Shown here piece after piece: positions 1-19,168 of a stretch of 32,000 nucleotides of DNA. Position 1 is the first letter of the stretch; every line of letters begins with the position of its first letter. Under the pieces are notes generated by a model. The model did not search any database. It was not told where the DNA came from and saw only the letters and a list, made by a program, of their open reading frames with translations. The stretch spans positions 120,001 through 152,000 of the forward strand of contig NZ_AP018159.1 of NCBI RefSeq assembly GCF_004296535.1, in the 5' to 3' direction. This DNA is from Candidatus Saccharimonadota bacterium (GTDB lineage: Bacteria > Pseudomonadota > Gammaproteobacteria > Enterobacterales > Enterobacteriaceae). Both the position numbers and the translations under genes were made by a program.

Positions 1-1
1 A

Positions 2-1669
2 ATGGCTATAGACAGATCTGGTATACAATTTAGAAAATTGAATACTAGTAAAGGATTAGCTGTTCAATCTACTAGAGCTCAAGCTGATAGATATATATAT
101 AGTAGAGAAGTAAAAAAAATATTATTTAGTAACAAAAATTTATATGTATTTCAAGATAAAGTTATAAAGTTATTAATAAATAATAATAAAATAAATGGTA
201 TATCTACTGTATTAGGGTTTAATTTTTTTTCTAAATCTGTTATTTTATGTTTAGGAACTTTTTTAAATGGATTTATATATATAGGAACAAAATTTAAATA
301 TAAAGGTGGAAGATCTAATGATATATCATCTACATATTTATCTAATCAATTAAAAGAAATATTTCCATTTTCTATAAATAAGTTAAAAACAGGAACTCCA
401 CCTAGATTAGATTTAAAAACTATAAATTTTAATAAGTTAAATTTTCAAAAAAGCGATTATCCTATACCAATGTTTTCTTTTATTAAACAAAATAATAATT
501 TAAAAAAAATATATTGTTATATAACATATACAAATGAAAATACACATAATATAATATATAAAAATCTACATTATAGTCCAATGTATACAAATAAAATATG
601 TAGTATAGGACCAAGATATTGCCCATCTATAGAAGATAAAATAATAAAATTTAAAGATAAAAAAAGTCATCATATATTTTTAGAACCTGAAAGCTTATTT
701 AGTAATGAAATATATCCAAATGGAATATCTACTAGTTTACCTATAAATATTCAATTTAAAATAATAAAATCTATAAAGGGATTAGAAAAATGTAGAATAA
801 CAAGACCAGGATATGCTGTAGAATATAATTTTTTAGACCCTAAAAATCTTTATTATACATTAGAAAGCAAAATTATATCTGGATTATTTATATCTGGGCA
901 ATTAAACGGTACAACAGGATATGAAGAAGCTGCTTCTCAAGGAATTATATCTGGCATAAATGCTGCATTATTTTCTAAAAATATGGAATCTTGGTATCCA
1001 AAAAAAGAATATTCTTATATAGGATTAATGATAAAAGATTTATGTGATAATGGAGTTATTGAACCATATAGAATGTTTACATCTAGGTCTGAAAATAGAT
1101 TTTTTTTAAGAGAAGATAATGCTGATATGAGATTAACAAAATATGGGTATAATTTAGGTTTAATTAATGAGTTTAGATGGAAAATTTTTGTTAATAAAAA
1201 AAATAATATATTAAATGAAAAAAACAGACTAAAAAATTTAAATATAGATATAAAAAAAATTAATAATAAAATTAATAAAAAAATAAATATAGAAAAAAAA
1301 GAAATAAATGCATTTGAATTATTAAAATTAAATGAAATATCTTATAAAGATATATTAAATATAATAGATTACACTTATAATAAGAATAAAAATTATATTG
1401 AAGAAATTTATAAATTAATAGAAATAGATATAAAATATGAATATTTTATATTAAAACAAAAAAAAGAAGTTGATATAAAAAATAAATTTTTAAAAATGTT
1501 AATACCTAAAGATATAAATTATAACAATATATCTGGATTATCTAATGAATCAAAATATTTATTATATAAATACAGACCAAATAATATAGAAGATATATTA
1601 AAAATACCAAATATAACATCATCATCTATTTTTATATTAATTATTTGGATTAAAAATAATAGAAAATGA
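2..1669 (+). CDS. mnmG: tRNA uridine-5-carboxymethylaminomethyl modification enzyme MnmG (GidA), 5' end truncated by window edge
   Basis: The ORF runs from the window edge. Long collinear matches to E. coli MnmG (GIQFRxLNxSKGxAVxxTRAQADR, GPRYCPSIEDK, FLEPE, IYPNGISTSLP, RPGYAxEY, GQxNGTTGYEEAAxQG, EPYRMFTSR). TGA stop at 1667-1669 overlaps the murB ATG (ATGA). Confidence 0.95.
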   Translation: MAIDRSGIQFRKLNTSKGLAVQSTRAQADRYIYSREVKKILFSNKNLYVFQDKVIKLLINNNKINGISTVLGFNFFSKSVILCLGTFLNGFIYIGTKFKYKGGRSNDISSTYLSNQLKEIFPFSINKLKTGTPPRLDLKTINFNKLNFQKSDYPIPMFSFIKQNNNLKKIYCYITYTNENTHNIIYKNLHYSPMYTNKICSIGPRYCPSIEDKIIKFKDKKSHHIFLEPESLFSNEIYPNGISTSLPINIQFKIIKSIKGLEKCRITRPGYAVEYNFLDPKNLYYTLESKIISGLFISGQLNGTTGYEEAASQGIISGINAALFSKNMESWYPKKEYSYIGLMIKDLCDNGVIEPYRMFTSRSENRFFLREDNADMRLTKYGYNLGLINEFRWKIFVNKKNNILNEKNRLKNLNIDIKKINNKINKKINIEKKEINAFELLKLNEISYKDILNIIDYTYNKNKNYIEEIYKLIEIDIKYEYFILKQKKEVDIKNKFLKMLIPKDINYNNISGLSNESKYLLYKYRPNNIEDILKIPNITSSSIFILIIWIKNNRK

Positions 1670-2742
1670 AATTTATTTCTATAAAAAAAATTCATAGTTT
1701 TAGATTAAATTCTAAAGCTAAAAAAATAATAAAAATACATTCTGTTATAGATTTAATTAATATATATAATATGTTAATTATTAAAAAAATAAATTTTATA
1801 ATTATAGGGAATGGAACTAATACTATTTTTTTAAACAATTTTAATGGAATTATTATAATAAATAAAATATTAGGAATAAAAAATAAAAGTGATAAAATAA
1901 ATTGGAAATTACATATAAACTCTGGAGAAAATTGGAATAAAATAATTAAATATACTTTAAAAAATAAAATATTTGGATTAGAAAATCTTGCTATGATACC
2001 TGGGAAAATTGGTTCTGCATCAATATATAATATAGGAGCTTATGGTTCTGAATTTAAAAATTTTTGTGAATATGTTGACATATTAAATTTAAAAAATAAT
2101 AAAATAATAAGATTTAGTAATAAAGATTGTAAATTTTCATATAGAAATAGCATATTTAAAAATAAAAATAATAAAAAAAATATATTTATTTTATCTATAG
2201 GATTAATAATTCCTAAAAAATGGAAACCAAATATATCTCATAGTATATTTAATAATAAATATTTTTTTATTAAAAAAAATATAACAGCTAATAAAATATA
2301 TAATTTTATATGTAAAATAAGAAAAAAAAATATACCTAATTATAATATTTATGGAAATTCAGGAAGTTTTTTTATTAATCCAATAATAAATAAAAAAAAA
2401 ATTAAATATTTAAAAAAGAAATATAATAATATTCCTTATAGTTTGGAAAAAAAATATAAATACAAAATATATGGTGGATGGCTAATAGAACAATGTGGAA
2501 TAAAAGGATTAATTATTGAAAATTTTTTTATAAATGATAAAAATTCATTAATAATTATTAATAAAGGAAATTATAATGGATATAATTTAATTTCAATAAT
2601 AAAAATAATTTATTATATTGTATTAATAAAATTTAATGTAAAATTAGAATTAGAAGTTTTTTTAATACTTAATAATAAATGTATAAATAGTAAAAAAATT
2701 TTTACTAATTTTTTAAAATATAATTTAAATTTATTATGTTAA
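1666..2742 (+). CDS. murB: UDP-N-acetylenolpyruvoylglucosamine reductase MurB
   Basis: 358 aa, collinear with E. coli MurB (GxGSN/TN..F, GENW, GLENLAxIPG, IQNIGAYG, CxFxYRxSIFK, GNxGSFFxNP, GWLIxQC). Confidence 0.9.
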   Translation: MKFISIKKIHSFRLNSKAKKIIKIHSVIDLINIYNMLIIKKINFIIIGNGTNTIFLNNFNGIIIINKILGIKNKSDKINWKLHINSGENWNKIIKYTLKNKIFGLENLAMIPGKIGSASIYNIGAYGSEFKNFCEYVDILNLKNNKIIRFSNKDCKFSYRNSIFKNKNNKKNIFILSIGLIIPKKWKPNISHSIFNNKYFFIKKNITANKIYNFICKIRKKNIPNYNIYGNSGSFFINPIINKKKIKYLKKKYNNIPYSLEKKYKYKIYGGWLIEQCGIKGLIIENFFINDKNSLIIINKGNYNGYNLISIIKIIYYIVLIKFNVKLELEVFLILNNKCINSKKIFTNFLKYNLNLLC

Positions 2743-2978
2743 ATATAAAATTATCTAAAATAGGTAGAAAAAATAAAATATCTTATAGAATAGTAGTAGC
2801 TTCATCTAAATCATCTAAAAATAGTAAATTTATAGAAAAAATAGGTTTTTTTAATCCATTTGATAAAAAAAATCAATTTAATATAAATATTAATAGATTT
2901 ATATACTGGAAAAAATGTGGATCAAAAATTTCAAATAGAGTTAAATTTATAATAAATAAATTTCATTATTTAAAATAA
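2736..2978 (+). CDS. rpsP: 30S ribosomal protein S16
   Basis: 80 aa; the N-terminus matches the S16 pattern (xxIxLxxxGxKxxxxYxxVVAxSxxxxNxxFIExxGFFNP). Overlaps the murB 3' end by 7 nt. Confidence 0.93.
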   Translation: MLNIKLSKIGRKNKISYRIVVASSKSSKNSKFIEKIGFFNPFDKKNQFNININRFIYWKKCGSKISNRVKFIINKFHYLK

Positions 2979-2993
2979 AAAAATTTTTTAAAT

Positions 2994-3723
2994 ATGAAAA
3001 TTATAATAATAACTATGTTTCCTAAAATTTTTAAAAATATATTTAATTATGGATTAATAAAAAAAGCTATTGTAAACAATATAATAAAATTAATTATTTT
3101 AGATTTAAAAAAATTTGTAAGTTTAGGAGAAAAAATAGATAATTATTCATATGGTGGCGGAGGTATGGTTATATCTTGTAATCCATTATACAAATCAATA
3201 TTAAAAGCTAAAGAAAATAATAAAAAATCAAAAATCATATACCTATCTCCACAAGGAAAAAAATTAAATCAAAATTATATTAATAATTTATCAAAATTTA
3301 AATCTATTATAATAATATGTGGTAGATACGAAGGAATAGATGAAAGAATAAAATCTAAAATAGATTATGAAATATCAATAGGAGATTATATATTAAGTGG
3401 AGGAGAAATACCTGCAATTGTATTAATAGATTCTATTTCTAGATTAATTCCCAGGAGTAATTAAAAATAAAATATCTATTAATAATGAATCATTTTATAA
3501 TAATTTATTAGATTTTCCTCATTATACAAGACCATATATTTTTTTAAATATGAAAGTTCCATCTATATTATTATCTGGAAATCATTTTGAAATTTATAAA
3601 TGGAGATTAAAACAATCATTAATTAATACATGGATAAATAGACCCGATTTAATAAATAAAATAAATTTAAAAAAATTAAAAAAAATATTCTTAAATAATT
3701 TTAAGAATTTTATAAATAAATAA
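2994..3723 (+). CDS. trmD: tRNA (guanine37-N1)-methyltransferase TrmD, interrupted by a +1 frameshift (segments 2994..3452 and 3454..3720, stop 3721-3723)
   Basis: Frame-0 ORF 2994..3464 matches TrmD residues 1-153 (YGGGxGM, IYLSPQG, CGRYEGIDER, IGDYxLSGGExPA, LIDSxSRxIP). Homology continues without a gap in the +1 frame from 3454 (GVIKN..ESF..LLDFPHYTRP..VPSILLSGNHFEIYKWRLKQSL..RPDL). The joined product is 242 aa, against 255 aa in E. coli. Confidence 0.9.
3447..3456 (+). other. frameshift junction ATT-CCC-A-GGA (0-frame reading ATT CCC AGG AGT AAT TAA); candidate +1 recoding site, 1-nt insertion or sequencing error
   Basis: Reading ATT CCC, skipping A3453 and continuing GGA GTA ATT AAA restores the conserved I-P-G-V motif exactly. 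The 0-frame terminates 3 codons later. Confidence 0.4.
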
Positions 3724-3738
3724 AACAACATAATAAAT

Positions 3739-4056
3739 ATGAAAAATATCATAAAAAATTTAAATTTGAGTCAATTAAAAAATAATAATTTAAAATTAAA
3801 ATCTGGATATTTTGTGGATGTTAATTTTTATATAGATTCAAATAAAAAAAAAAATCAAATATTTTCTGGATTAATTATATCTATAAAAAATAAATCTTTT
3901 TTAACATCAATAATAGTTAGAAAAATATCCTATAATGTAGGAGTAGAAAAAACATTTTATATTCATGCTCCTAACATAAAAAAAATTGTAATAAATAAAA
4001 TCAAAAAATATAGAAAATCTAAATTATATTTTTTAAGAAAAATTTCAAGATTATAA
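3739..4056 (+). CDS. rplS: 50S ribosomal protein L19
   Basis: 105 aa; matches L19 (MxNIIKxL, F.G..I.I.N.....S..VRKIS.GVE..F..H.P, KLY.LR). Lies in the syntenic position after trmD. Confidence 0.93.
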   Translation: MKNIIKNLNLSQLKNNNLKLKSGYFVDVNFYIDSNKKKNQIFSGLIISIKNKSFLTSIIVRKISYNVGVEKTFYIHAPNIKKIVINKIKKYRKSKLYFLRKISRL

Positions 4057-4159
4057 ATTATATAATTATATAATAATATTACATAAATTAATTAATTGAA
4101 ATATTAAATTAATTATAGTAATATATATATATAATCAAATTAATTAATTTAAATAAATT

Positions 4160-5206
4160 ATGATAACTAATAAAAATTATTTAGAAAAAAAAATAATAAC
4201 ACCAAAAAAAATTAAAAGTAAATATAAATTAAATTTAAAAAATAAATTAAAAATAATAAATAATAAAAATACAATTTCAGATATTATAAATAAAAAAAAT
4301 AATAAATTTTTAATTATTTGCGGGCCATGTTCTATAAGTGATTATAAATCTTCTATAGAATATGGGAAAAAATTATATAATTTATATAAAAAAGTAAAAA
4401 ATTATATATATATAGTAATGAGAACATATTTAGAAAAACCAAGAACTTCAATAGGATGGAAAGGTATTATAAATGACCCATATATTAATAATACAAACAA
4501 AATAGAAGATGGAATAATCATATCAAGAAAAATATTAGTAGATTTAATAAAAATTAATATACCAATTGGAACAGAATTGCTAAATCCAATATATTTTAAA
4601 TATTTTGATGATTTATTTAGTTGGATTTCTATAGGAGCTAGAACTTCAGAATCACAAATTCATAGAGAAATAGTATCATCATTAGATATTCCAACAGGAT
4701 TTAAAAATAGTTTAGATGGTACAATAAATTCTTCAATAAATTCAATAAAATCTTCTTCAACAAAACACACTTTTATAAGTATAAAAGATGATGGAAAAAT
4801 ATGTTTATTAGATTCCAATGGTAATAATAATACTCATATAATTTTAAGGGGTGGTAAAAATGGTCCAAATTATTACAGTGATAAAATAAATTCTTATATT
4901 GATATACTAAAAAAAGAAAATTTAAATAAATCAATTATTATAGATTGTAGTCATGATAATTCTTATAAAAATTATAAATTACAAAAAAAAGTATCAGATA
5001 ATATTATAGAACAAAAAATAAATGGAAATGAATATATATCTGGAATAATGTTAGAGAGTAATCTTTTTGAAGGAAATCAATACTGTAATTCATTAAATAA
5101 TTTAAAATTTGGAATATCAATTACAGATTCATGTATTGGTTGGGATGAAACTGAATATATTATTAATAATATATATAAAAAATTAAAAAAAATAAATAAA
5201 AAATAA
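4160..5206 (+). CDS. aroF: 3-deoxy-D-arabino-heptulosonate-7-phosphate (DAHP) synthase, class I; aroF by synteny with tyrA
   Basis: 348 aa, collinear with E. coli DAHP synthases (CGPCSI, MRxYxEKPRTxxGWKGxINDP, FSWxxIGARTxESQxHRE, GFKNxxDG, ILRGG, DCSHxNS, GxMxESNxxEGNQ). Sits immediately upstream of tyrA, as in the E. coli aroF-tyrA operon. The isozyme call is based on synteny only. Confidence 0.88.
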   Translation: MITNKNYLEKKIITPKKIKSKYKLNLKNKLKIINNKNTISDIINKKNNKFLIICGPCSISDYKSSIEYGKKLYNLYKKVKNYIYIVMRTYLEKPRTSIGWKGIINDPYINNTNKIEDGIIISRKILVDLIKINIPIGTELLNPIYFKYFDDLFSWISIGARTSESQIHREIVSSLDIPTGFKNSLDGTINSSINSIKSSSTKHTFISIKDDGKICLLDSNGNNNTHIILRGGKNGPNYYSDKINSYIDILKKENLNKSIIIDCSHDNSYKNYKLQKKVSDNIIEQKINGNEYISGIMLESNLFEGNQYCNSLNNLKFGISITDSCIGWDETEYIINNIYKKLKKINKK

Positions 5207-5214
5207 ATTTCAAT

Positions 5215-6315
5215 ATGATAAAGAATATAGAAAATATAAGAAAAAAAATAGATATAATCGATAATAAAATATTGGATTTAATAGAAAAAAGATTGAAAAA
5301 AGTTCATAAATTATCAATATTAAAAAATAAGTTAAATATACCATCATATATAAAAGAAAGAGAAAAAGATGTTATTTATAATAAAATAATTGAAAATAAA
5401 AGAATTAATATTTCTAATGATTTAATAAAAGATATATTAAAAAGAATAATGTATGAATCTTATTCAATAGAAAATAAATATATAAAAATAAAAAAATACA
5501 AACTATATAAAATATTATTTATAGGTAAAAATAAAAATTTATTTAAAAATTTATTTTTAAAATCAAATTATAAAATTTATGAATTAGATATTAATTTTGA
5601 CAAAAAAGATGAAAAATATATTAAATTAACAAATGTAATTTTTATACAAGTTCCAATATCAGAATTTAAGATCACTTTAAATAAAATAGTACATTTAATA
5701 AAAAAAAAGTGTATTATAATAGATTTATCTTATAATAAACATTTATCTGTAAAAATTATTTCTAATTATAAGATGCCGTTTTTATCAATATGTATAACAA
5801 AAGAATATGATTCAAATTATATTACTAAAAATTCAATAATAATTTGTTATTTAAATGATAAAGAAAAATTTATATGGTTCTTTAATCAACTTAAATTATG
5901 GGGTATAAATTTAATAGAATTAGATTATACTATTTATAATGAATATATTATAAAAAATGAATCATTAAAATATTTTATATTTATAACATATATATATTTA
6001 ATAAAAAATAAAAATATAGATTTAGAAAAAATTTTTAAATATTCATCTCCGTTAAATAAAATATTTATGTGTTTTATATTATTTTTTATAAAAAATAATG
6101 AATTATATTTAGAAAATATAATAAACTTTCATAATATAGAAAAATATATAAAAGAATATATTTATTATATGAATAGATTGCTTAATGATATAAAAAACAA
6201 AAAATATTTAAATATTAAATTATGTATAAATAATATATTAAAAATAGAAAAAAGCAATATACTTATCTTAGAAAAATATAATAATTTATTATTAAGATCT
6301 TTAAATATATACTAA
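5215..6315 (+). CDS. tyrA: T-protein homolog: chorismate mutase fused to a (possibly degenerate) prephenate dehydrogenase domain
   Basis: 366 aa. The first ~85 residues align without indels to E. coli TyrA (R9, K25-R26, K37, P43, Y45, E48-R49-E50, RxMxESYS). The C-terminal domain is alignable (VDLxxxK, LWG, SSP) but lacks key motifs; see findings. Confidence 0.85.
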   Translation: MIKNIENIRKKIDIIDNKILDLIEKRLKKVHKLSILKNKLNIPSYIKEREKDVIYNKIIENKRINISNDLIKDILKRIMYESYSIENKYIKIKKYKLYKILFIGKNKNLFKNLFLKSNYKIYELDINFDKKDEKYIKLTNVIFIQVPISEFKITLNKIVHLIKKKCIIIDLSYNKHLSVKIISNYKMPFLSICITKEYDSNYITKNSIIICYLNDKEKFIWFFNQLKLWGINLIELDYTIYNEYIIKNESLKYFIFITYIYLIKNKNIDLEKIFKYSSPLNKIFMCFILFFIKNNELYLENIINFHNIEKYIKEYIYYMNRLLNDIKNKKYLNIKLCINNILKIEKSNILILEKYNNLLLRSLNIY

Positions 6316-6319
6316 AAAC

Positions 6320-7048
6320 ATGAATAATACAAATTCAAATATTATAAATAATATAAACATTATTTATGAAGATGAATATTTGTTTATAATTAATAAACCT
6401 TGTAATTTAATAGTTAATTTAAATAATAAATATATAAATTTAATAAATATTATAAACAATAATATAAAAGATCTTAGTAATATAGAAAACAATGGATTAG
6501 TACATAGATTAGATAAAAATACAACTGGATTAATAATTATAGCTAAAAATAATTTATGTTATTTTAAACTTAAAAAACTTTTTTATAAAAAAAAAATATA
6601 CAAAGAGTATATAGGAGTTGTTACAGGAGAAATGTTATCTGGAGGATCTATATATAAAAGTATTTCTAGAGATAAAAAAAGAAATAAAATGTGTATAAAT
6701 GAAGAATATGGAAAAAAATCAATAACTTATTATAAAGTAATTAAAAAATTATATCTTCATACTTTAATAAAAATAAATATAATTACAGGAAGAACACATC
6801 AAATAAGAGTTCATATGTCTAATATTGGTTATACTCTTGTTGGAGATAAAAAATACATAAATAACAATTCTAATTACAAAAAATCTTTTGATTTTTTAAA
6901 GAAAAAAAAATTTTTATTTGAAAGACAAGCGTTACATTCATATAAAATAAAATTTATACATCCAATAACTAAAAAAAATATAAAATGCATTTCTAAATGT
7001 CCTGATGATATAAATAAATTAATTAAATTTATAGAAATTTATAGTTGA
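6320..7048 (+). CDS. rluD: 23S rRNA pseudouridine synthase, RluA/RluD family (rluD by synteny), lacking the N-terminal S4 domain
   Basis: 242 aa; matches IxYEDExxxxINKP, HRLDKxTTGLxxxAK, EYxxV, TGRTHQIRVHM, LVGDxxY, RQALH. Syntenic with E. coli rluD downstream of tyrA. An in-frame stop at 6302-6304 rules out a longer N-terminus. Confidence 0.8.
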   Translation: MNNTNSNIINNINIIYEDEYLFIINKPCNLIVNLNNKYINLINIINNNIKDLSNIENNGLVHRLDKNTTGLIIIAKNNLCYFKLKKLFYKKKIYKEYIGVVTGEMLSGGSIYKSISRDKKRNKMCINEEYGKKSITYYKVIKKLYLHTLIKINIITGRTHQIRVHMSNIGYTLVGDKKYINNNSNYKKSFDFLKKKKFLFERQALHSYKIKFIHPITKKNIKCISKCPDDINKLIKFIEIYS

Positions 7049-7121
7049 AAATAGCATTAATTTATATTATGATATATATAACAATATATAACTTATTCAA
7101 AATTATTACTTATAAATTAAT

Positions 7122-7682
7122 ATGTTCAAAAATTATACTAATTTAATTTTAATAGGTCATACAGGATCAGGAAAAACAACAATAGCAAATAAATTATCTA
7201 AAATATTAAATATAAATTTTTTTGATTCAGATAATGAAATAGAAAATATATTAAGTTTAAATATAAATAATATATTTAAATTATACGGTGAACAATTTTT
7301 TAGAGAAAAAGAAAATGAATTTCTTATTTATATAAAAAATAAATCTAAATTCATATTATCAACAGGAGCAGGTATATTAACAAAAAAAAATATAAAAATT
7401 ATTAATAAAATAGGAATTATAATTTATATAAAATTAGATATTAAAGAATGTATAAAAAGAATTATAAATGCTAAAAATAGACCATTATTAAATAATTATA
7501 TAAAAAATAAAAATTATATTGATAAAATTTTTAAAAATAGAGAATCTTTATATAAAGATATATCTAATATAATAATTGATGCAAATAATAAAAATATAAA
7601 TAAAATCTTAAAAGATATTTTATTTATTTTAAATAAAAATTTACTATATAAAAATGAAAAAAATAAAAATATTTTCAAATAG
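7122..7682 (+). CDS. aroK: shikimate kinase
   Basis: 186 aa; Walker A GHTGSGKTT, FxDSDxEIE, STGxG, RPLL. Followed by aroB, as in the E. coli aroK-aroB operon. Confidence 0.9.
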   Translation: MFKNYTNLILIGHTGSGKTTIANKLSKILNINFFDSDNEIENILSLNINNIFKLYGEQFFREKENEFLIYIKNKSKFILSTGAGILTKKNIKIINKIGIIIYIKLDIKECIKRIINAKNRPLLNNYIKNKNYIDKIFKNRESLYKDISNIIIDANNKNINKILKDILFILNKNLLYKNEKNKNIFK

Positions 7683-8748
7683 AATAAAAAAATATGAAAT
7701 ATTAATAGATTTTGACTTATTAAATAAAATAAATATTTTTTCTAAAATAGAAAATAATCATAAAATAATGTTTATTACAAATGATTTTTTATTTAAAAAA
7801 TATTTTAGATATATAATAAAAAAAAATATAAATAATTTATATTATAAATATTATATAATTCCAGATGGAGAATTTAGTAAATCAATAAATATATTAAATA
7901 ATATAATAACTGCATTATTAAATTTTAATTATAATAAAAAAACATATTTAATAGCAATAGGAGGAGGAGTTATAGGAGATTTAACTGGATTTGTATCTTC
8001 TATATATTTAAGAGGAATAAAATATGTACAAATACCAACTACATTATTATCACAAGTTGATTCTTCAATAGGAGGTAAAACTGCTATAAATCATGCTTTA
8101 GGAAAAAATATGATTGGAACATTTTATAATCCAGAATTTGTATTTACAGATACTAAATTTTTATACAGTTTGCCAAATAAAGAATTATTATCTGGTATAG
8201 CTGAAATTATTAAATATTCTCTAATATTAGATTATAATTTTTTTATTTGGATAGAAAAAAATATATTTAAAATATTAAAATTAGATAAAAAAACAATTTT
8301 ATATTGTATAAAAAAATGCTGCACATTAAAATCTTTATTAATAAATAAAGATGAAAAAGATTTAAATATAAGAAATATATTAAATTTTGGACATACATTT
8401 GGTCATGCTATAGAAGCTTTTATGGGTTATGGAAATTGGACTCACGGAGAGTCTATATCTGCAGGTATGATAATTGCTTCTAAATTATCATTTAAGTTGA
8501 ATAAAATAACATATTTAGAATTAAATAGAATAAAAAATTTAATATTAATGTTTAAATTACCAATTAAGGGACCAAGTAATATGAAGTTTAATGATTATAT
8601 AAATTATATGAACAGAGATAAAAAAAATTCTATAAATTCTAACAATAAAATAAATATAAATTTAATTTTATTAGAAAAAATAGGAAAAGCTAAAATAGTA
8701 AATGATATAAATATAAATGATATTAAATATGCCATAAAAAATCATTAA
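7654..8748 (+). CDS. aroB: 3-dehydroquinate synthase
   Basis: 364 aa; matches PDGExxKS, GGGVIGDLTGF, YxxxxxxxQIPTTLLSQVDSSIGGKTAxNH, GKNMIGxFYxP, AEIIKY, LNFGHTFGHAIE, GxWxHGExxxxGM. The start is uncertain; the called start overlaps aroK by 29 nt. Confidence 0.93.
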   Translation: MKKIKIFSNRIKKYEILIDFDLLNKINIFSKIENNHKIMFITNDFLFKKYFRYIIKKNINNLYYKYYIIPDGEFSKSINILNNIITALLNFNYNKKTYLIAIGGGVIGDLTGFVSSIYLRGIKYVQIPTTLLSQVDSSIGGKTAINHALGKNMIGTFYNPEFVFTDTKFLYSLPNKELLSGIAEIIKYSLILDYNFFIWIEKNIFKILKLDKKTILYCIKKCCTLKSLLINKDEKDLNIRNILNFGHTFGHAIEAFMGYGNWTHGESISAGMIIASKLSFKLNKITYLELNRIKNLILMFKLPIKGPSNMKFNDYINYMNRDKKNSINSNNKININLILLEKIGKAKIVNDININDIKYAIKNH

Positions 8749-9986: not shown

Positions 9987-10143
9987 AATTATTAAATATT
10001 AATTGATTTTATAAATATAAAAATTTAAAATTATTTATTTTATTAAAATAAATTAAATAAATTTATATTAAAATTATATATATTATATACTAATAATTAT
10101 TAAATTAAAAAAAAATATAAAATTTATTGGATACTTTTAAAAT

Positions 10144-11199
10144 ATGAATAATGATATTATAGAATCAATAAAAAAAATTAATATATTAAAATTAGAAATT
10201 GAAGAAAATATATATATTTTAAAAAAAAACAAAAATAATAAAAATAGATTAGAAATTTTAAAAAATAAATTAAATTGTTATAACAATTTAATAGAAAATA
10301 ATTTAAAATTAATTAAAATTAATAATGAAATATATAAAGTAAGTAATATAAATGACAAAGAAATAGAAATACTTATAAAAGAAGAAATAAATTTATTAAA
10401 TAGTGAAAAAAATAATATATTATTTAATATTGAATCTATAAAAAAAAGTTTAAAAAAAATAAATTATAATAATAAAGGTTGTTTAATAGAAATAAAATTA
10501 GGAACTGGAGGAAATGAATCTTCATTATTTATAGAAAATTTATATAAAATGTATATTAAATATTTTTATAAAAAAAATTGGAATTTTTTTTTAATAAATA
10601 AAATTTTAAATAACAAAGGAGGATATAAAGAAATAGTAATTAAAGTATTAAATGAAATATCTTATGAAAAATTAAAATTTGAATCTGGAGGACACAGAGT
10701 TCAAAGAATTCCTGAAACAGAATCTAAAAATAGAATACATACATCAACATGTATAGTTGCTGTTACACCTATAATAGAAGAAAATTATCTTAAAAAAGAT
10801 ATTAATTTATCAGATTTAAAAATAGATACATTTAAATCTTCAGGTTCTGGTGGTCAACATGTGAATACTACTGATTCTGCAATAAGAGTTACTCATATTC
10901 CAACAGGAATAGTTGTAGAATGTCAAGATGAAAGATCACAACATAGAAATAAATCAAAAGCTATATCAATTTTAAAATCTAAAATAAATTTTATAGAAGA
11001 AAAAAAAATAAAGGAAAAAAATAATATAATAAAAAAAAAATTATTAGGAACAGGGCATAGAATAGATAGAATAAGAACTTATAATTTTGTAAAAAATAGA
11101 ATTACAGATCATAGATTTAATATAACTATATATAATAAATTATTTTATATTTTAAATGGAGAATTAGATATATTATTAAATATATTAGAAAAAAAATAA
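10144..11199 (+). CDS. prfA: peptide chain release factor 1
   Basis: 351 aa; [13 protein letters not shown] (PxT tripeptide typical of RF1), [39 protein letters not shown] (GGQ motif), RIRTYNFxxxRxTDHR. Confidence 0.95.
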
Positions 11200-11274
11200 T
11201 TAATTTACTATCTATATTATTTTAAATAATATATTATTATATTATACATATAATAATACTATAATTTATTTACA

Positions 11275-11751
11275 TTATTGATGTAAATTATAAGTATATA
11301 ATAAGAATATTAATATTATAATTATAAATAAAAAAAATTTATTAAATTTAAATTTAAATTTTATTGGCCATAATAAACATATTCCATGTTTAGTTAACAT
11401 ATCTGCTAACATATGATTTATACAGCCTAAAATTATTCCATAATGTATTGATTTATTTAAATAAAAATTATTTTTATATAAAATATATTTAGATAAAAAA
11501 TATATTATAATTAAAAATAATATACTATGAGTAATTTTTCTATGTCCAAAAAATTTATTTATAAATGTTGAAATAAATTTTAATTTGTTTCCTATTGAAG
11601 AAATTGGATGATCTATATCTGGAAAAAAAGAAAATATTATCGAAGTTATTAATAATATATTCCATTCTATTATAGAAAATTTTAATATTTTAAAATTTTT
11701 TAATACAAAAATAGAAATTGTATTAAATATTATATGATCTTTGATATTCAT
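11275..11751 (-). CDS. ydjM: YdjM-family (DUF457) membrane-bound metal-dependent hydrolase homolog
   Basis: 158 aa, hydrophobic. Matches E. coli YdjM: PDIDHPxSxxGxxLKxIS, FGHRxxTHS, GxxxHxLADMLTxxGxxLLWP. E. coli ydjM lies near thrS, so it is syntenic here. Confidence 0.8.
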   Translation of the reverse strand: MNIKDHIIFNTISIFVLKNFKILKFSIIEWNILLITSIIFSFFPDIDHPISSIGNKLKFISTFINKFFGHRKITHSILFLIIIYFLSKYILYKNNFYLNKSIHYGIILGCINHMLADMLTKHGICLLWPIKFKFKFNKFFLFIIIILIFLLYTYNLHQ

Positions 11752-11836
11752 AATATTTACTTTTTATTTTTTTTTTAAATTTAAAATTTAATTTAAATAT
11801 TTATATAATAAAATTTATATTTTATAATAAAAAATT

Positions 11837-13534
11837 ATGAACATAAATAATTCTTGCTCAATATATTTATATTTATTAAAATATTCTATTAATAAAATGC
11901 TAGTTCATTCATATATAGTTAATTTTGGGATAATAAAAAATTATTTTTTTTGTGATTTTATATATAAAAAAAATATAAAAACAAAAAATATATATGATAT
12001 AGAAAAAAATATATTAAATTTAAATACGCTAAATAAAAAAATATTAAAATTTAATATTGATAATATAAATTTATTAAAATATTTTAAAAATAATAAAAAT
12101 ATATATAGTTATAATAATCTTAAAAAATATACAAAATCAAATATTATATATTTTATATACAAAATAGATAATTTTATAGATATATCTTTAAGAGAGTTTA
12201 ATTTTAATATAAATATTAATAATTTAAATATAGAAAAAAAAATATATCAAACATGGTATAAAAATAAAATAATATATAGAATATGCGGTAATGAAAAAAA
12301 TACTTTAGATATAATAAAAAATAATAATAATATAAAAAAAAATAAATTTAATAAATTGTACTATATATTTAAAGAATCTCCTGGTATGATATTTTGGAAT
12401 AATAATGGTGTAATAATATTTAATGAATTAGAAAAATATATAACAGAAAAATTATTTTTATATGATAATTATTTTAAAGTAAAAACTCCTATAATATTAA
12501 ATAGCTCTTTATGGAACAAAACAAAACATTCTATTTTTTATTCAAAAAATATATATAATTTAGTTATAAATAATATTAATTATTATATAAAACCGATGAA
12601 TTGTCCTTGTCATATAAAATTTTTTTTAAAAGAAGTAAAATCATATAAAGATTTACCTTATAGAATATTAGAGTTTGGAAATTGTCATAGAAATGAATCT
12701 TCAGGATCATTACATAATTTAATGAGAACTAGAAGTTTTTTTCAAGATGATACTCATATATTTTGTTCAGAAAAAGATTTAGAAAATGAGATAATTAAAT
12801 CTATAAATATAATATTTGAAGTGTATAATATATTTAATTTTAAAAATATTGATATATTTTTATCAACAAGACCTAATATTAAGATAGGAAATGAAGATAT
12901 ATGGAATAATTCTGAAAATATTATTAAAAATATCTTAAATAAAAAAAAAATTATTTTTAATATAAATTGTGGCAATGGAGCATTTTATGGTCCTAAAATA
13001 GAGTTTGTATTAAAAGATTTATATAATAGATCGTGGCAATGTGGAACTATACAATTAGATTTTTTTACTTCAAAAAATTTAGATGCTTCTTATATAGATA
13101 ATAATAATAATAAAAAGTTTCCTATTATTATACATAGAGCTATATTAGGTTCCATAGAAAGATTTATAGGAATAATATCTAATCATTATTTAAATAAATA
13201 TCCATTATGGTTATCTCCTATTCAAATTATAATTTTATCTATTACAGAAAAACAAATAGATTATGTTAAAAAAATTTTTAAAAAAATATTATTTTTAAAA
13301 ATTAGAGTAAAAATAGATATTAGAAACAAAACTTTAAATTATAAAATAAGAGAACATAAATTAAATAATATTCCATATATTATAATTTGTGGAGAAAAAG
13401 AAAAAAAAAATAAAAAAATTACTATTAAAAGTATAAATAATATAAATTATTATTTAATATCTTTAAATAAATTTTTAAAAAAAATAATAAAAGAAATTAA
13501 TTTAAAAAAACATAACGAAATTTTTAATGGTTAA
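11837..13534 (+). CDS. thrS: threonine--tRNA ligase (N-terminally reduced)
   Basis: 565 aa. The catalytic and anticodon-binding domains are collinear with E. coli ThrRS (ESPGMxFW, IKPMNCPCH, GNCHRNExSGSLHxLMRxRxFxQDDxHIF, GAFYGPKIEF, WQCGTxQLDF, IHRAILGSxERFIG). The N-terminal ~180 aa is low-complexity and ~77 aa shorter than in E. coli. Confidence 0.92.
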   Translation: MNINNSCSIYLYLLKYSINKMLVHSYIVNFGIIKNYFFCDFIYKKNIKTKNIYDIEKNILNLNTLNKKILKFNIDNINLLKYFKNNKNIYSYNNLKKYTKSNIIYFIYKIDNFIDISLREFNFNININNLNIEKKIYQTWYKNKIIYRICGNEKNTLDIIKNNNNIKKNKFNKLYYIFKESPGMIFWNNNGVIIFNELEKYITEKLFLYDNYFKVKTPIILNSSLWNKTKHSIFYSKNIYNLVINNINYYIKPMNCPCHIKFFLKEVKSYKDLPYRILEFGNCHRNESSGSLHNLMRTRSFFQDDTHIFCSEKDLENEIIKSINIIFEVYNIFNFKNIDIFLSTRPNIKIGNEDIWNNSENIIKNILNKKKIIFNINCGNGAFYGPKIEFVLKDLYNRSWQCGTIQLDFFTSKNLDASYIDNNNNKKFPIIIHRAILGSIERFIGIISNHYLNKYPLWLSPIQIIILSITEKQIDYVKKIFKKILFLKIRVKIDIRNKTLNYKIREHKLNNIPYIIICGEKEKKNKKITIKSINNINYYLISLNKFLKKIIKEINLKKHNEIFNG

Positions 13535-14063
13535 TAATAAAGATAAAATAATAGATAATAGATATCTTATAAATTATGATATTAATTTTGAAAAGATAAG
13601 ATTAATAGATATAAATGGAAAACAATTGGGTATCTTTTATACAAAAGATGCTATAAAAAAGTATAAAAAAGAAGATCTTGATTTAGTTTTAATAAATAAA
13701 AACATAAATCCTCCTATATGTAAAATAATAAATTATAATAAATATATATATAATAAAAATAAATTTTTAAAAAATTTAAAAAAAAAACAAAGTTTTATTC
13801 AAATTAAAGAAATACAAATGAAACTTAATATAGATAATAATGATTATCTAATTAAATTAAAAAAAATTAGAAATTTTTTAAATAAAAAAAATAGAGTTAA
13901 AATAATTATAAAATTTAGTGGTAGAGAGATAGTACATAACAGTATAGGTTTTTCATTATTTAAAAAAATTTATGAAGAATTAGATGATATTTGCAAAATA
14001 CATTTTATTTCTAATAAAATAGAAGATAAACAAATAATTATGATTTTATCTAGCAAAAATTAA
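13527..14063 (+). CDS. infC: translation initiation factor IF-3
   Basis: 178 aa; matches IRLIDxxGxQLGI, DLDLVxI, PPICKIxxYxKYxY, IKEIxxxxxIDxxDY, RFRGRE-like FSGRE, QIIMILS. The called start is ATG at 13527, inside the last codons of thrS, whereas E. coli uses AUU. Confidence 0.9.
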   Translation: MVNNKDKIIDNRYLINYDINFEKIRLIDINGKQLGIFYTKDAIKKYKKEDLDLVLINKNINPPICKIINYNKYIYNKNKFLKNLKKKQSFIQIKEIQMKLNIDNNDYLIKLKKIRNFLNKKNRVKIIIKFSGREIVHNSIGFSLFKKIYEELDDICKIHFISNKIEDKQIIMILSSKN

Positions 14064-14075
14064 AATAAATATTTT

Positions 14076-14279
14076 ATGAATAAAAATAATAAAATAAAAA
14101 CTTTAAAAAGTATTAAAAAAAGATTTATTATAAATAATAATAATAAACAAATAAAATATAAACATTCTAATACAAAACATCTTTTAAGAAAAAAAAATTC
14201 TAAAAAAAAAAGAAACTTAAGAAAGTTGTTTTATTTATTGAATAAAAAAAATAAAAAAAGAATATTAAAATCAATATAA
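14076..14279 (+). CDS. rpmI: 50S ribosomal protein L35
   Basis: 67 aa, very basic; KxKTxKSxxKRF...KHxxxxxxHLLxKK. Sits between infC and rplT. Confidence 0.85.
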   Translation: MNKNNKIKTLKSIKKRFIINNNNKQIKYKHSNTKHLLRKKNSKKKRNLRKLFYLLNKKNKKRILKSI

Positions 14280-14307
14280 TTTAAAAAATTAATAATTTTA
14301 AAAAAAA

Positions 14308-14655
14308 ATGACTAGAGTTAACCATAGTGTTCAATCAAGAAATAAACATAAAAAAATATTAAAACAAGCAAAAGGATATTATAGTGCAAGATCTAAAAAT
14401 TTTAAATCTGCAAAACAGTCTGTTATAAAATCTTGTCAATATTCATATATACATAGAAAAGTTAAAAAAAGAGATTTTAGAAAAACATGGATTATAAAAA
14501 TAAATGCTGAATTAAAAAAAAATAATTTATCATATAATAATTTTATTTTTTTATTAAAAAATAAAAAAATAAATATTAATAAAAAAATATTATCTTATAT
14601 TGCAGAATTTAAACAAAATGATTTTAAAAAAATTATAAATTATATAATAAAATAA
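14308..14655 (+). CDS. rplT: 50S ribosomal protein L20
   Basis: 115 aa; MxRVxxxVxxRxxHKKILKQAKGYYxARS, QYxYxxRxxxKRxFRxxWIxxINA. Confidence 0.95.
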   Translation: MTRVNHSVQSRNKHKKILKQAKGYYSARSKNFKSAKQSVIKSCQYSYIHRKVKKRDFRKTWIIKINAELKKNNLSYNNFIFLLKNKKININKKILSYIAEFKQNDFKKIINYIIK

Positions 14656-14656
14656 A

Positions 14657-15658
14657 ATGTATAAAGAAATAAAAATAAAATTAAATGATATACTAAATGA
14701 TATTAAAAAGTATAATATTAAAAATTTTTATAATATAAATGATTTAAATATATTTAAATCTAAATTAATTGGTAAAAAAAGTTATATATATAATATAATA
14801 AAAAATTTTTCAAATATAAATGAAATAAATAAAAAAGATATAGGAAAACTAATTAATATAATAAAAAATAAAGTAAACATTATTTATAAAAATAATATAA
14901 AAAATATTTACTTATTAAAAAAAAAAAATAATAAAAAATTTTTAGATATTACAATTCCTACGTATTTAAATAATGTTGGTAGTTTAAATTTAATATCTAT
15001 AATAATAAACAAACTTAAGAATAAATTTTTAAATTTAGGTTTTAATATAATTAATGGGAAAGAAATTGAAGATTCAAAACATAATTTTGATTTATTAAAT
15101 ATACATTTAGAACATCCATCTAGAAATTATAATGATACTTTTTGGATAAACGATAATTATTTATTAAGAACACAAATTTCTAGTATACAAACTAGAATTA
15201 ATAATAGAAATATTCCAATAAAAATAATATCGTATGGAAAAGTTTATAGAAAAGACAAAGGGAAAAAACATTCTTTTATGTTTCATCAAATGGATGGTAT
15301 ATATATTGATAAAAATATAAGTATATCTAATTTAAAATTTATACTAGTAAATATAGTAAAATTTATATTAAATGATAATGATATAAAAATAAAATTTAGA
15401 ATTTCTTATTTTCCATTTACAGAACCTTCAATAGAAATGGATATATTTTTTAATGATAGATGGATAGAGATATTAGGAGCTGGAATGATACATAACAAAA
15501 TATTAAAATATTTAAATTTAAATAATAATTTATATTCTGGTTTTGCTTTTGGAATTGGTATAGAAAGATTAATCATGATAAAATATAGGATTAAAAATAT
15601 TAAATTACTTTATGAAAATAATATAAATGTATTAAACAATTTTAAACATAAAATATAA
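14657..15658 (+). CDS. pheS: phenylalanine--tRNA ligase alpha subunit
   Basis: 333 aa; matches HPxR, LLRTQxSxxQ, GKVYRxD, HxxxFHQxDG, FPFTEPSxExD, ILGxGMxHxxxL, GFAFGxGxERLxM. Confidence 0.92.
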   Translation: MYKEIKIKLNDILNDIKKYNIKNFYNINDLNIFKSKLIGKKSYIYNIIKNFSNINEINKKDIGKLINIIKNKVNIIYKNNIKNIYLLKKKNNKKFLDITIPTYLNNVGSLNLISIIINKLKNKFLNLGFNIINGKEIEDSKHNFDLLNIHLEHPSRNYNDTFWINDNYLLRTQISSIQTRINNRNIPIKIISYGKVYRKDKGKKHSFMFHQMDGIYIDKNISISNLKFILVNIVKFILNDNDIKIKFRISYFPFTEPSIEMDIFFNDRWIEILGAGMIHNKILKYLNLNNNLYSGFAFGIGIERLIMIKYRIKNIKLLYENNINVLNNFKHKI

Positions 15659-15663
15659 TAATA

Positions 15664-17922: not shown

Positions 17923-17951
17923 ATATTATTAAAAATTTAATAAATTTTTTT

Positions 17952-19166
17952 ATGTATTGTGTAAAAAAAATAAGATCATATTTTCCTATTTTTAAAAAAA
18001 AAAATAGATTATATTTAGATAATGCTGCTAGCACATATAAACCAATAAGCGTTATTAATAAAGAATATAATTTTTATAAATATGAATATTTATCATATAA
18101 TAAAAGTTTATATAGTAATTCATTAAATAATAAAGTAGAGTATACTAGAAAAATAATTTCCAAATTTATAAATTCTAATTATAATGAAATAATATTCACT
18201 AAAGGAGCTACAGAAAGTATAAATTTAGTTTCAAACTCATTATTATATAATAATGAGTTTTTAAAAAAAGGTGATAATATAATAATTTCAAATATAGAAC
18301 ATCATTCTAATTTTGTTACATGGAAATTTTTATTAAAAAAAAAAAATATAGAAATTAAAATTTTACCTATTAATAAAAAAAATGGTTATTTTAAAAAAAA
18401 TTTTTTAAAAAAAATTATAAATAATAAAACTAAATTTATTTCAATAACTCATGTTTCAAATGTTTTAGGAGTATTAAATGATATAGAAGAAATAATTTGT
18501 ATTATTAAAAATATAAACAAAAATATATTAGTTTTAGTAGATGGATCTCAAGCTATATCACATATAAAAGTTGATGTTAAAAAAATAAATTGTGATTTTT
18601 ATGTTTTTTCTGGTCATAAAATGTATGGACCACTGGGTATAGGAATTTTATATGGAAAAAAAAAAATTTTAGATAAAATGAAACCTTGGCAATTAGGAGG
18701 GTCAATAATTAAAAATATATATAATAATAAAATTATTTTTGTTGATTCACCTTGGAAATTTGAAACTGGAACAATGAATTCAGCATCTGTAATAGGCATT
18801 AATGAATCTATAAAATTTATTAATAAAATAGGAATAAATAATATTTATAATTGGGAAAATAAAATATTAGAATATTCTATAAATAAATTAAAAAAAATTA
18901 AAGATATTATTATTTATTGTGATAATATTTATAATAAATTAAGTATAATATCATTTAATATAAAAAATATAAATTGTAATGATATAGGGTTTTTATTAAA
19001 AAATTCTAATATATATATTAGAACAGGACATCAATGTTCAATACCAATAATGAATTTATATAAAATATCAGGAGTATGTAGAATATCATATGCTATGTAC
19101 ACAAATTTTGATGATATAGATTTTTTTATAGAAAATCTAAAATTTATTAAAAAAAAATTTTTTTAA
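17952..19166 (+). CDS. sufS: cysteine desulfurase SufS (class II aminotransferase V)
   Basis: 404 aa; matches YLDNAAxT, HHSNxVxW, ITHVSNVLG, VDGxQAxxH, DFYxFSGHKMYGPxGIGxLYG (PLP Lys), FExGT, RTGHQCxxP (catalytic Cys). Confidence 0.9.
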   Translation: MYCVKKIRSYFPIFKKKNRLYLDNAASTYKPISVINKEYNFYKYEYLSYNKSLYSNSLNNKVEYTRKIISKFINSNYNEIIFTKGATESINLVSNSLLYNNEFLKKGDNIIISNIEHHSNFVTWKFLLKKKNIEIKILPINKKNGYFKKNFLKKIINNKTKFISITHVSNVLGVLNDIEEIICIIKNINKNILVLVDGSQAISHIKVDVKKINCDFYVFSGHKMYGPLGIGILYGKKKILDKMKPWQLGGSIIKNIYNNKIIFVDSPWKFETGTMNSASVIGINESIKFINKIGINNIYNWENKILEYSINKLKKIKDIIIYCDNIYNKLSIISFNIKNINCNDIGFLLKNSNIYIRTGHQCSIPIMNLYKISGVCRISYAMYTNFDDIDFFIENLKFIKKKFF

Positions 19167-19168
19167 AA

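Follow-up and report, generated by a model that had tools for sequence, protein, structure and literature searches.

The DNA analysed here (the window) is a stretch of 32,000 nt from the genome of Nardonella EPO, which lives as an endosymbiont in the weevil Euscepes postfasciatus; gene content is known from this window, and the remaining ~188 kb of the genome lie beyond it. All features discussed are on the + strand. An open reading frame of 366 aa plus stop at 5215..6315 is tyrA, the T-protein orthologue of EPO, and its product is 100% identical to the protein of the Euscepes postfasciatus endosymbiont named “T-protein” in GenBank and “chorismate mutase” in UniRef. Directly upstream lies the gene for an aroF/aroG-type DAHP synthase, the first enzyme of the shikimate pathway (4160..5206; Pfam DAHP_synth_1, E 3.1e-70), as is also the case in E. 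coli (the aroF-tyrA operon) and in the other sequenced Nardonella, those of Pachyrhynchus infernalis (PIN), Rhynchophorus ferrugineus (RFE), and Sipalinus gigas (SGI). The identity of EPO aroF to its counterparts in other Nardonella is not lowered, the ratio of EPO-to-others identity to that of the others among themselves being 1.03. Downstream follow rluD, encoding a pseudouridine synthase (6320..7048; Pfam PseudoU_synth_2, E 4.4e-30) and conserved as a neighbour by synteny, then aroK (7122..7682; Pfam SKI, E 1.3e-38) and aroB (7654..8748; DHQ_synthase in the orthologues). Both aroK and aroB are intact (7122..8748), with the glycine-rich motifs GSGKTT and GGGVIGDLTGF kept, which shows that the steps upstream of TyrA have been preserved. 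The trmD gene in the same window carries a frameshift and has retained its YGGGGM motif.

Two domains make up the protein, an AroQ-type chorismate mutase domain (CM; residues 1-88, 5215..5478; Pfam CM_2) and a prephenate-dehydrogenase-like domain (PDH; residues 99-366, 5509..6312), the latter recognised by homology and predicted fold, its catalytic and cofactor residues being gone. EPO tyrA is a true T-protein orthologue in a conserved aroF-tyrA-rluD-aroK-aroB synteny: full-length homology, the CM plus PDH architecture, and the aroF-tyrA context were all found. The alignment to the NCBIfam model of the bifunctional T-protein (NF008400/PRK11199) spans residues 1-330 with an E of 4.3e-50, and the score of 170.7 bits lies under the equivalog cut-off of 273. 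With the T-proteins of E. coli and H. influenzae EPO TyrA shares the sequence of AroQ mutase, Rossmann, and helical dimerisation domains and a similar length (373 versus 366 aa in EPO), and with that of E. coli also the aroF-tyrA-(bamD)-rluD neighbourhood.

The Chorismate Mutase Domain

The CM_2 profile (PF01817) matches residues 8-86 over positions 1-79 of its 80, with 47.2 bits against a gathering cut-off of 27. A first-pass annotation made from the letters of the window had aligned the mutase half to E. coli TyrA by eye, without indels and with the hallmark residues kept; MAFFT alignment with the E. coli protein agrees, residues 1-88 pairing with E. coli 1-88 with zero indels. All eight CM columns conserved in the family (R9, D13, D16, R26, K37, R49, E50, and S82) are retained in EPO, E86 is also kept, and the mutase catalytic residues are identical to those of the E. 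coli and H. influenzae T-proteins. We take R9, R26, K37, R49, E50, S82, and E86 of the T-protein to be R11, R28, K39, R51, E52, S84, and Q88 of EcCM. The identity ratio of this half is 1.01. On sequence, the chorismate mutase half of EPO TyrA is apparently intact.

Residues Lost and Kept in the Dehydrogenase Domain

The register of the dehydrogenase half rests on three independent alignments, namely phmmer against 2pv7 (the crystal structure of H. influenzae TyrA), a MAFFT alignment to E. coli K-12 TyrA plus eight further sequences, and a larger MAFFT alignment of 46 sequences. When conserved columns are defined as those at least 85% conserved among 30 reference TyrA proteins, EPO retains only 10 of 36 PDH positions, as opposed to 31 in PIN, 26 in RFE, and 28 in SGI (Fisher p = 9e-7, 3e-4, and 4e-5, respectively, for EPO against each of them).

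The losses fall on the sites that define the enzyme. Where E. coli has VGGGGQMGRLF, PIN IGGKGKMGSIF, RFE IGGTGKIGKIF, and SGI IGGDGNMGILF, EPO has I---GKNKNLF; what is left of the Rossmann GxGxxG loop, FIGKNKNLF (5518..5544), lacks the residues corresponding to G105-G106-G107 of E. coli by a 3-residue deletion, G111 is replaced by K107, and G108 survives as G104, the sole remaining glycine. The annotation had described the fingerprint as gone save for G104 (GGT, 5524-5526), and the three alignments give the same register. Tyr173 (TAT, 5731..5733) takes the place of the active-site serine (Ser176 in E. coli, Ser179 in H. influenzae, Ser126 in A. aeolicus), a column that is 100% Ser in the 30 references and Ser also in PIN, RFE, and SGI; the role of this serine has been described, and the Ser126Ala exchange lowers kcat 15-fold (PMC2954222). 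The catalytic His197, invariant in the reference proteins and in PIN, RFE, and SGI, is aligned to Cys193 (TGT, 5791..5793) within a HPMFG motif turned into CITKE, as proposed from the by-eye alignment and now seen in the phmmer and both MAFFT alignments; the codons cited for G104 and C193 were exact. A His197 mutant is without dehydrogenase activity (PMC2954222). Tyr241-Asn242 (5935..5940) occupy the position of the His245-Asp246 relay, which tunes the catalytic His (His248-Asp249 in H. influenzae, where the His200-His248-Asp249 network has been set out; PMC2954222); the references show 100% conservation at both columns, and PIN, RFE, and SGI retain the two residues. Further changes are H257 to Y253 and R286 to K282, while K178 is retained as K175 and Asp170 also persists.

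The prephenate-binding Arg294 requires more care. It is aligned to Leu289 (TTA, 6079..6081), adjoining a 1-residue deletion. The annotation was right that the EPO segment it quoted holds no Arg. One detail is corrected here: R294 of E. coli is the Arg of “GRLF” and not that of “IYRLE”; the “GRLF” placement is backed by Arg297, Gln301, and Tyr306 of H. influenzae, which match a Pasteurellaceae-like homologue (P0013). Both arginines lie inside the quoted segment, and EPO is without either. At this position PIN has Lys, RFE Asn, and SGI Tyr. None of the four Nardonella has Arg294 or His257, so neither loss singles out EPO, and Arg294 is a weak discriminator within Nardonella. One of these Nardonella reportedly has a pathway shown experimentally to yield tyrosine precursors, which would mean that the clade tolerates a non-canonical site and counts against a dead dehydrogenase. 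Replacement of Arg294 by Gln in the enzyme leads to a higher Km (PMC2954222).

The dehydrogenase might on these grounds be active through a non-canonical site, with Cys193, His176, or Lys282, for example, substituting for the lost residues and NAD(P)+ binding that does not need a GxGxxG loop. The domain has been preserved and has a predicted fold (see below), Lys175 (E. coli K178), Asp170, and Lys282 (aligned to R286) persist, and the other Nardonella already do without Arg294 and His257. We nevertheless consider such activity very improbable: 26 of the 36 conserved positions are altered, the pyrophosphate-binding loop has lost three residues, the Ser has been lost together with the His and the His-Asp relay, and mutation of the single His is enough to cripple the E. 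coli dehydrogenase (PMC2954222). Nor would His176 be a compensating novelty, since it is also present in SGI.

Profile models, a structure-based alignment, and related symbionts had been proposed in the annotation as checks, and they point the same way as the residues. Pfam PDH_N, with a cut-off of 26.5 bits, scores 47.2 for E. coli, 44.8 for PIN, 39.9 for RFE, and 33.8 for SGI, and a sub-threshold 26.3 for EPO, where its match is limited to residues 122-180; PDH_C has zero match in EPO TyrA, and the bifunctional model, as stated, stays below its cut-off, CM_2 being the one to pass. In the structure-anchored alignments (phmmer to 2pv7, and MAFFT), the catalytic His, the Arg, and GxGxxG are missing from the functional positions of EPO. 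PIN, RFE, and SGI TyrA resemble the EPO protein in gene order, in a similar AT bias, and by 34-36% identity, but unlike it they keep GxGxxG, the Ser, HPMF(G/S), and His-Asp and pass the PDH_N threshold. Thus what sets EPO TyrA apart from the E. coli and H. influenzae T-proteins is the lack of GxGxxG, Ser176, His197/HPMFG, His245-Asp246, His257, and Arg294 and the sub-cut-off scores; the GxGxxG loop, the His197/Ser176/His245-Asp246 set, and Arg294 are the features of T-protein membership that it does not show.

Drift, Artefact, and Rate

The annotation had set the losses against glycine-rich motifs preserved in other enzymes of the window, and GSGKTT in aroK, GGGVIGDLTGF in aroB, and YGGGGM in trmD were found as described. 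The glycine content of the PDH half is 0.8% in EPO versus 2.9-3.9% in the other Nardonella, and that of EPO aroF, aroB, and murB is 5.3-5.5%, similar to their orthologues. Pure drift under AT bias is rejected: four arginines of the mutase domain are kept, as are glycine-rich motifs elsewhere, and the depletion of glycine is confined to the PDH domain. A frameshift artefact is rejected as well; at five motif sites the other two frames are rich in stops and without a hidden GxGxxG, HPMF, or Arg motif, so the decay is no product of a frameshift.

The identity ratio of the PDH half is 0.77, compared with 0.84-1.08 for ten neighbouring genes. A relative-rate count gave 31 EPO-unique versus 16 PIN-unique changes in PDH and 145 versus 154 in the pooled neighbours (Fisher p = 0.028), a modest signal (p about 0.03-0.04). 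The acceleration of the PDH half of EPO is only about 2-fold, and there is none in the CM half. With the exception of Arg294 and His257, the residue losses are restricted to one domain and, within Nardonella, to one lineage. The core proposal of the annotation, an intact mutase joined to a dehydrogenase that would be non-functional for reasons beyond AT drift alone, finds support in these computational tests.

Constraint on the Decayed Domain

Not one of the 276 codons of the EPO PDH half is a stop, although 133 of them are a single substitution away from one; the other frames hold 12-44 stops, and shuffled sequences 33. Homology is still readily recognised, with an E of 1.6e-10 for phmmer of EPO TyrA against 2pv7 and alignment-score z values of 18-25 against shuffles for comparison with the PDH halves of other Nardonella; the z score replaced shuffled percent identity as a control because the latter is uninformative, free end gaps yielding about 31% over short aligned stretches. 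The AF2 model preserves the Rossmann strands at a pLDDT of 91.5, and Foldseek aligns it to 2pv7 with a TM of 0.84-0.86 normalised to target length; since AF2 draws this confidence from an alignment of functional homologues, it is not independent proof of folding. Selection still acts on the domain as an open, foldable unit, and it is no free-running pseudogene, a call of purifying selection that rests on the stop counts and the ~2-fold rate, the divergence being too great for dN/dS. Retention of homology and predicted fold, together with signs of continued purifying selection, would place the PDH half among the pseudo-enzymes.

These data also bear on the idea that EPO is losing all of tyrA, possibly along with its entire route to tyrosine, the gene being an early pseudogene that is still open and neither of whose activities matters to the host. 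The decayed PDH half and the frameshift in trmD would fit this, as would the absence of aroE from EPO; PMC8113238 and PMC10284843 report EPO to be without aroE and yet to “remain functional”. We regard such a loss as unlikely, for the mutase domain keeps eight of eight conserved positions without acceleration, the adjoining aroF, aroK, and aroB remain intact, with a conservation equal to that in other Nardonella, and without selection it is hard to keep 276 codons open when 133 of them are near-stop codons and composition predicts about 33 stops.

Comparison with Other Symbionts

The TyrA relatives came from an exhaustive search of representatives; a scan of GTDB species-representative genomes gave no relative of the protein, and word-indexed searches, dominated by low-complexity words, yielded no additional Nardonella TyrA. 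Like EPO, Candidatus Annandia adelgestsuga, the symbionts of Macroplea reed beetles, and two further symbionts (P0003 and P0010) have a TyrA with eight of eight CM positions and only 11-15 of 36 PDH positions. Their catalytic His is replaced by Gln in Annandia, by Tyr in the Macroplea symbionts and P0003, and by Cys in P0010, and CM_2 is the sole Pfam match in each of these proteins. They differ from EPO in belonging to other lineages with larger genomes (335-765 kb contigs) and in the gene contexts; EPO is the only case of decay inside a clade for which supply of tyrosine is the stated sole role. Annandia additionally has PheA (PMC6022629). Candidatus Shikimatogenerans, a member of the Bacteroidota found in grain and bostrichid beetles, is proposed to end its pathway at chorismate or prephenate, with tyrosine completed by the host (PMC8113238, PMC10284843); it resembles EPO in the absence of aroE, but its mutase is part of an unrelated AroG/PheA-type fusion and a TyrA relic is entirely absent.

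The dead domain could have taken on a new job beyond that of a scaffold, such as sensing of a ligand, docking of an enzyme imported from the host, or channelling of prephenate to an exporter. It is open and only about 2-fold accelerated, and import of a host aminotransferase has been proposed for the Nardonella of another weevil (PMC10816905). A new job nonetheless seems quite improbable: neither a new conserved motif nor an insertion can be seen, the sequence suggests no particular new function, and the parallel decay in four other symbiont lineages resembles loss and not gain. Co-option of the decayed Rossmann domain as a substitute for AroE was dismissed, the nucleotide-binding loop being lost.

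Function of TyrA and Completion of Tyrosine Synthesis

Nardonella is the reference case of a symbiont reduced to providing one amino acid, tyrosine, for hardening of the beetle cuticle, and in the accepted scheme the symbiont makes 4-hydroxyphenylpyruvate, to which the host adds the amino group. For EPO, the probable explanation in our view is that TyrA is a chorismate mutase with a catalytically dead PDH pseudo-domain kept as a scaffold, that the pathway ends at prephenate, and that the host finishes tyrosine; what we infer here is the loss of dehydrogenase activity, from sequence, together with the scaffold role and the route beyond prephenate. Catalysis by EPO TyrA would be confined to the N-terminal AroQ mutase, which converts chorismate to prephenate, and the C-terminal prephenate dehydrogenase would now be a pseudo-enzyme domain. 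With the dinucleotide loop, the Ser, the catalytic His, the His-Asp relay, and the substrate Arg lost, we propose that there can be no normal NAD(P)+ binding and no hydride transfer. The dehydrogenase body would be retained, full-length and foldable, as a structural or dimerisation scaffold, probably because the AroQ mutase dimer relies on it, notably on the helical dimerisation domain, for stability and activity; in E. coli TyrA both activities fall when the domains are separated (PMC1173090).

If the dehydrogenase is dead, the aromatic pathway of the symbiont would stop at prephenate. Completion of tyrosine outside EPO TyrA would then most plausibly proceed by way of phenylpyruvate and phenylalanine: prephenate could be converted to phenylpyruvate spontaneously or with the aid of the host, phenylpyruvate to phenylalanine by a host aminotransferase, and phenylalanine to tyrosine by host phenylalanine hydroxylase. 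A handover of prephenate or phenylpyruvate to the host would, by analogy, agree with the proposal for Shikimatogenerans. As EPO is reported to be functional without aroE, it is evident that missing steps can come from elsewhere, and these could include a dehydrogenase.

In the accessible literature, we found no earlier description of a TyrA consisting of a mutase and a dead dehydrogenase, on which the original Nardonella genome report (Anbutsu et al. 2017) may comment. More tentatively, and with rather less than even confidence, at least five independent lineages of insect symbionts may have such a TyrA, with the handover in EPO moved from 4-hydroxyphenylpyruvate up to prephenate. With aroE absent and the TyrA dehydrogenase dead, both NAD(P)-dependent steps of the route would be gone in EPO, and the pattern may reflect selection against steps requiring redox cofactors in a minimal cofactor economy; maps of gene presence based on tyrA would then be wrong for several published symbionts. 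Several published metabolic maps of symbionts, including that of Annandia (PMC6022629), do treat tyrA as a working dehydrogenase, with which the residues present in these proteins appear to disagree, and caution seems advisable.

If EPO TyrA is indeed a mutase only, the division of labour would vary among weevil lineages, and Euscepes postfasciatus, a pest of sweet potato, would need at least two extra steps as a host, aromatisation and hydroxylation via phenylalanine hydroxylase. Predictions would follow as to which intermediate builds up in the bacteriome and how sensitive the supply of tyrosine is to knock-down of the host phenylalanine hydroxylase (PAH).

Identity and neighbourhood of tyrA

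The open reading frame at 5215–6315 (+) in the window (G+C ~14%) encodes a 366-residue product with 100% identity to a protein of the Euscepes postfasciatus endosymbiont (Nardonella EPO) on a 219,841-bp contig, which is called "T-protein" in GenBank and "chorismate mutase" in UniRef. Nardonella EPO belongs to the weevil symbionts with genomes of ~0.2 Mb that have been characterised as tyrosine-supply specialists. The local order, mnmG, murB, rpsP, trmD, rplS, the DAHP synthase gene, tyrA, rluD, aroK, aroB, pth, lolB, prfA, is that of the other sequenced Nardonella, PIN, RFE and SGI (from Pachyrhynchus infernalis, Rhynchophorus ferrugineus and Sipalinus gigas), and the arrangement aroF-tyrA ... 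bamD-rluD seen in the enterobacterium E. coli is preserved too; the shared gene order thus identifies the EPO gene as a true tyrA orthologue and no look-alike.

bamD itself lies between tyrA and rluD in PIN (L006 11144–11875), SGI (L008 11164–11898) and E. coli; it is missing at this junction in EPO (4-base gap, 6315–6320) and RFE (L007 10361–10386), having been either lost or relocated. The aroK and aroB frames overlap by 29 bases in EPO (7654–7682) and similarly, by 20 bases, in PIN (L006 13509–13528), while the genes are apart in RFE and SGI. GC and AT skews track gene orientation across 1–32000: they are positive over the plus-strand genes (1–8000 and 10000–20000) and turn negative in the minus-strand pth/lolB block and, from ~21 kb onward, in the ribosomal-protein operon. 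trmD (2994–3723) is split: its frame 2994–3464 (156 aa) is closed by a TAA stop, and the C-terminal third is read one frame over (+1) from ~3451, where it shares 57% identity with residues 158–224 of PIN TrmD (E 2e-23). An additional base in or near CCC 3450–3452 would account for the split, which could be a sequencing error or a real frameshift (near 3450–3464), although the gene is normally essential.

Residues lost from the dehydrogenase half

The first-pass annotation had proposed a TyrA with an intact chorismate mutase (CM) and a prephenate dehydrogenase (PDH) half devoid of its hallmark residues. Its register was recovered identically in three alignments (phmmer against 2pv7, the H. influenzae TyrA crystal sequence; MAFFT including E. 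coli K-12 TyrA; and an alignment of 46 sequences, the full-length relatives recovered when HMMER was run exhaustively), and the codons it cited are exact (GGT 5524–5526, G104; TGT 5791–5793, C193). Residues 1–88 align with E. coli 1–88 without indels, as claimed, and retain R9, D13, D16, R26, K37, R49, E50, S82 and E86. The GxGxxG loop of a Rossmann fold binds the NAD pyrophosphate; in EPO it has lost three residues, E. coli G105-G106-G107 being deleted and G111 being K107, so that only G104 (E. coli G108) is left of the fingerprint. Further on, S176 is Y173, K178 is kept (K175), the catalytic H197 with its following P-M-F-G is C193-I-T-K-E, H245-D246 is Y241-N242, H257 is Y253, R286 is K282 and R294 is L289. 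For Arg294 the earlier claim stood in that the EPO segment contains no arginine at all; the exact residue had to be specified as that of "GRLF" within the segment, which agrees with Arg297, Gln301 and Tyr306 as numbered in H. influenzae (PMC2954222). No hidden motifs were found in the other reading frames at the motif sites.

His197 polarises the 4-OH of prephenate and is kept deprotonated by His245-Asp246, Ser176 (A. aeolicus Ser126) sets the orientation of both substrate and NAD+, and Arg294 binds the substrate carboxylate (PMC2954222); judged from the alignments, the residues lost in EPO are those defining dehydrogenase chemistry. Arg294 is missing in all four Nardonella proteins (Leu in EPO, 6079–6081; Lys in PIN, Asn in RFE, Tyr in SGI), as is His257, with Tyr in each (EPO: 5971–5973); these losses are therefore not EPO-specific, and the substrate pocket departs from the canonical one even in those Nardonella dehydrogenases that count as "functional".

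Extent and timing of the decay

At columns with ≥85% conservation across a reference set of 30 TyrA proteins, EPO keeps 8/8 in the CM and 10/36 in the PDH domain, versus 8/8 and 31/36 in PIN, 26/36 in RFE, 28/36 in SGI and 33/36 in Blochmannia, again with 8/8 in each mutase (Fisher p for EPO vs PIN 9e-7, vs RFE 3e-4, vs SGI 4e-5). Profile searches agree: Pfam CM_2 passes (47.2 bits, cut-off 27), PDH_N falls slightly below its cut-off of 26.5 (EPO 26.3; E. coli 47.2, PIN 44.8, RFE 39.9, SGI 33.8), PDH_C is not detected, and the score for the NCBIfam bifunctional equivalog is 170.7 (cut-off 273). The bare label "chorismate mutase" in RefSeq and UniRef is the output to be expected of an automated pipeline once the bifunctional model fails; the databases thus already flag the PDH problem implicitly. 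AT bias as the cause was ruled out, in line with the first-pass annotation: of the 269 residues of the PDH half, 2 are Gly (0.8%; 2.9–3.9% in other Nardonella), EPO aroF, aroB and murB have 5.3–5.5% as in their orthologues, and the control motifs GSGKTT, GGGVIGDLTGF and YGGGGM are all present in the window.

Mean identity of EPO to the other three Nardonella, divided by that within the three, is 1.01 for the CM and 0.77 for the PDH domain (ten neighbouring genes, 0.84 to 1.08). At sites where RFE equals SGI, the PDH half has 31 EPO-unique vs 16 PIN-unique changes (p = 0.04), the CM half 6 vs 4, and the pooled neighbours 145 vs 154 (Fisher p = 0.028 for the PDH contrast). The loss therefore occurred on the EPO branch and was confined to the PDH domain.

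Residue losses, profile scores and column counts support the mutase-only proposal: the dehydrogenase is probably catalytically dead, with EPO TyrA acting as a chorismate mutase. That a non-canonical dehydrogenase is still active is highly improbable, as this is hard to square with the loss of 26/36 conserved positions, and the sole nearby histidine, His176, is common to SGI.

A probable pseudo-domain under constraint

Acceleration of the PDH half is only ~2-fold, and it aligns with the other Nardonella PDH halves 18–25 SD above shuffles. Its 276 codons, 133 of them one substitution away from a stop, contain no stop (12–44 in the other five frames; shuffles average 33). Such heavy change at formerly invariant sites implies that constraint has been altered for a long time, and a frame kept open at the length of its orthologues throughout would imply selection for the full-length protein; the half is retained as a constrained pseudo-domain, not as a free-running pseudogene. 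An AlphaFold2 model (40-sequence alignment; pLDDT 91.5, pTM 0.86) has the Rossmann strands in place and matches 2pv7 best in the PDB (target-normalised TM 0.84–0.86, rmsd 2.3–2.7 Å); as the model leans on active homologues, it is supportive only of compatibility with the TyrA fold.

A new function of the dead domain would be one reading of this retention, though quite an improbable one, as its sequence shows no feature in favour of it. Chorismate mutases of the AroQ type are obligate dimers. In 2pv7, the C-terminal helical domain forms the dimer interface (PMC2954222), and splitting the two domains of the E. coli enzyme lowers both activities (PMC1173090); the dead domain of the predicted mutase is probably retained since the mutase depends on it.

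Consequences for the pathway

The EPO pathway product would be prephenate, which might plausibly proceed via phenylpyruvate to phenylalanine (host aminotransferase) and to tyrosine (host phenylalanine hydroxylase). In Shikimatogenerans systems, beetle hosts have been proposed to turn symbiont prephenate into tyrosine (PMC8113238, PMC10284843). The same two papers, citing earlier work on EPO, report that EPO has no aroE (shikimate dehydrogenase) yet "remains functional"; with a dead PDH, both NAD(P)-dependent steps would thus be missing or dead in this lineage, which hints either at cofactor economy or at outside enzymes filling the gaps. Decay of the whole pathway would fit the loss of aroE and the frameshift in trmD, but is unlikely, with the mutase intact and unaccelerated and aroF, aroK and aroB intact.

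By descent and architecture EPO TyrA belongs to the T-protein family, but it lacks the functional hallmarks of that family (GxGxxG, His, Ser, Arg) and stays below its HMM cut-off, and in predicted function it resembles a stand-alone AroQ chorismate mutase. The protein is a variant within a known enzyme family, and a well-known symbiotic pathway would have been shortened in this one lineage, a moderate surprise for specialists and one that can be tested directly. One study of TyrA evolution in a Sodalis symbiont concluded that the enzyme is still active, and a reconstruction of Annandia counts TyrA towards tyrosine synthesis (PMC6022629). No description of a decayed dehydrogenase domain in EPO or in four similar lineages was found in the accessible literature. 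These four have the same pattern (CM 8/8, PDH 11–15/36, Pfam CM_2 only), the catalytic His being Gln in Candidatus Annandia adelgestsuga (P0033), Tyr in the Macroplea symbionts (P0027) and in a symbiont from SRR32619173 (P0003; L001 10001–11083), and Cys in a symbiont with a 765-kb contig (P0010; L002 6001–7173).
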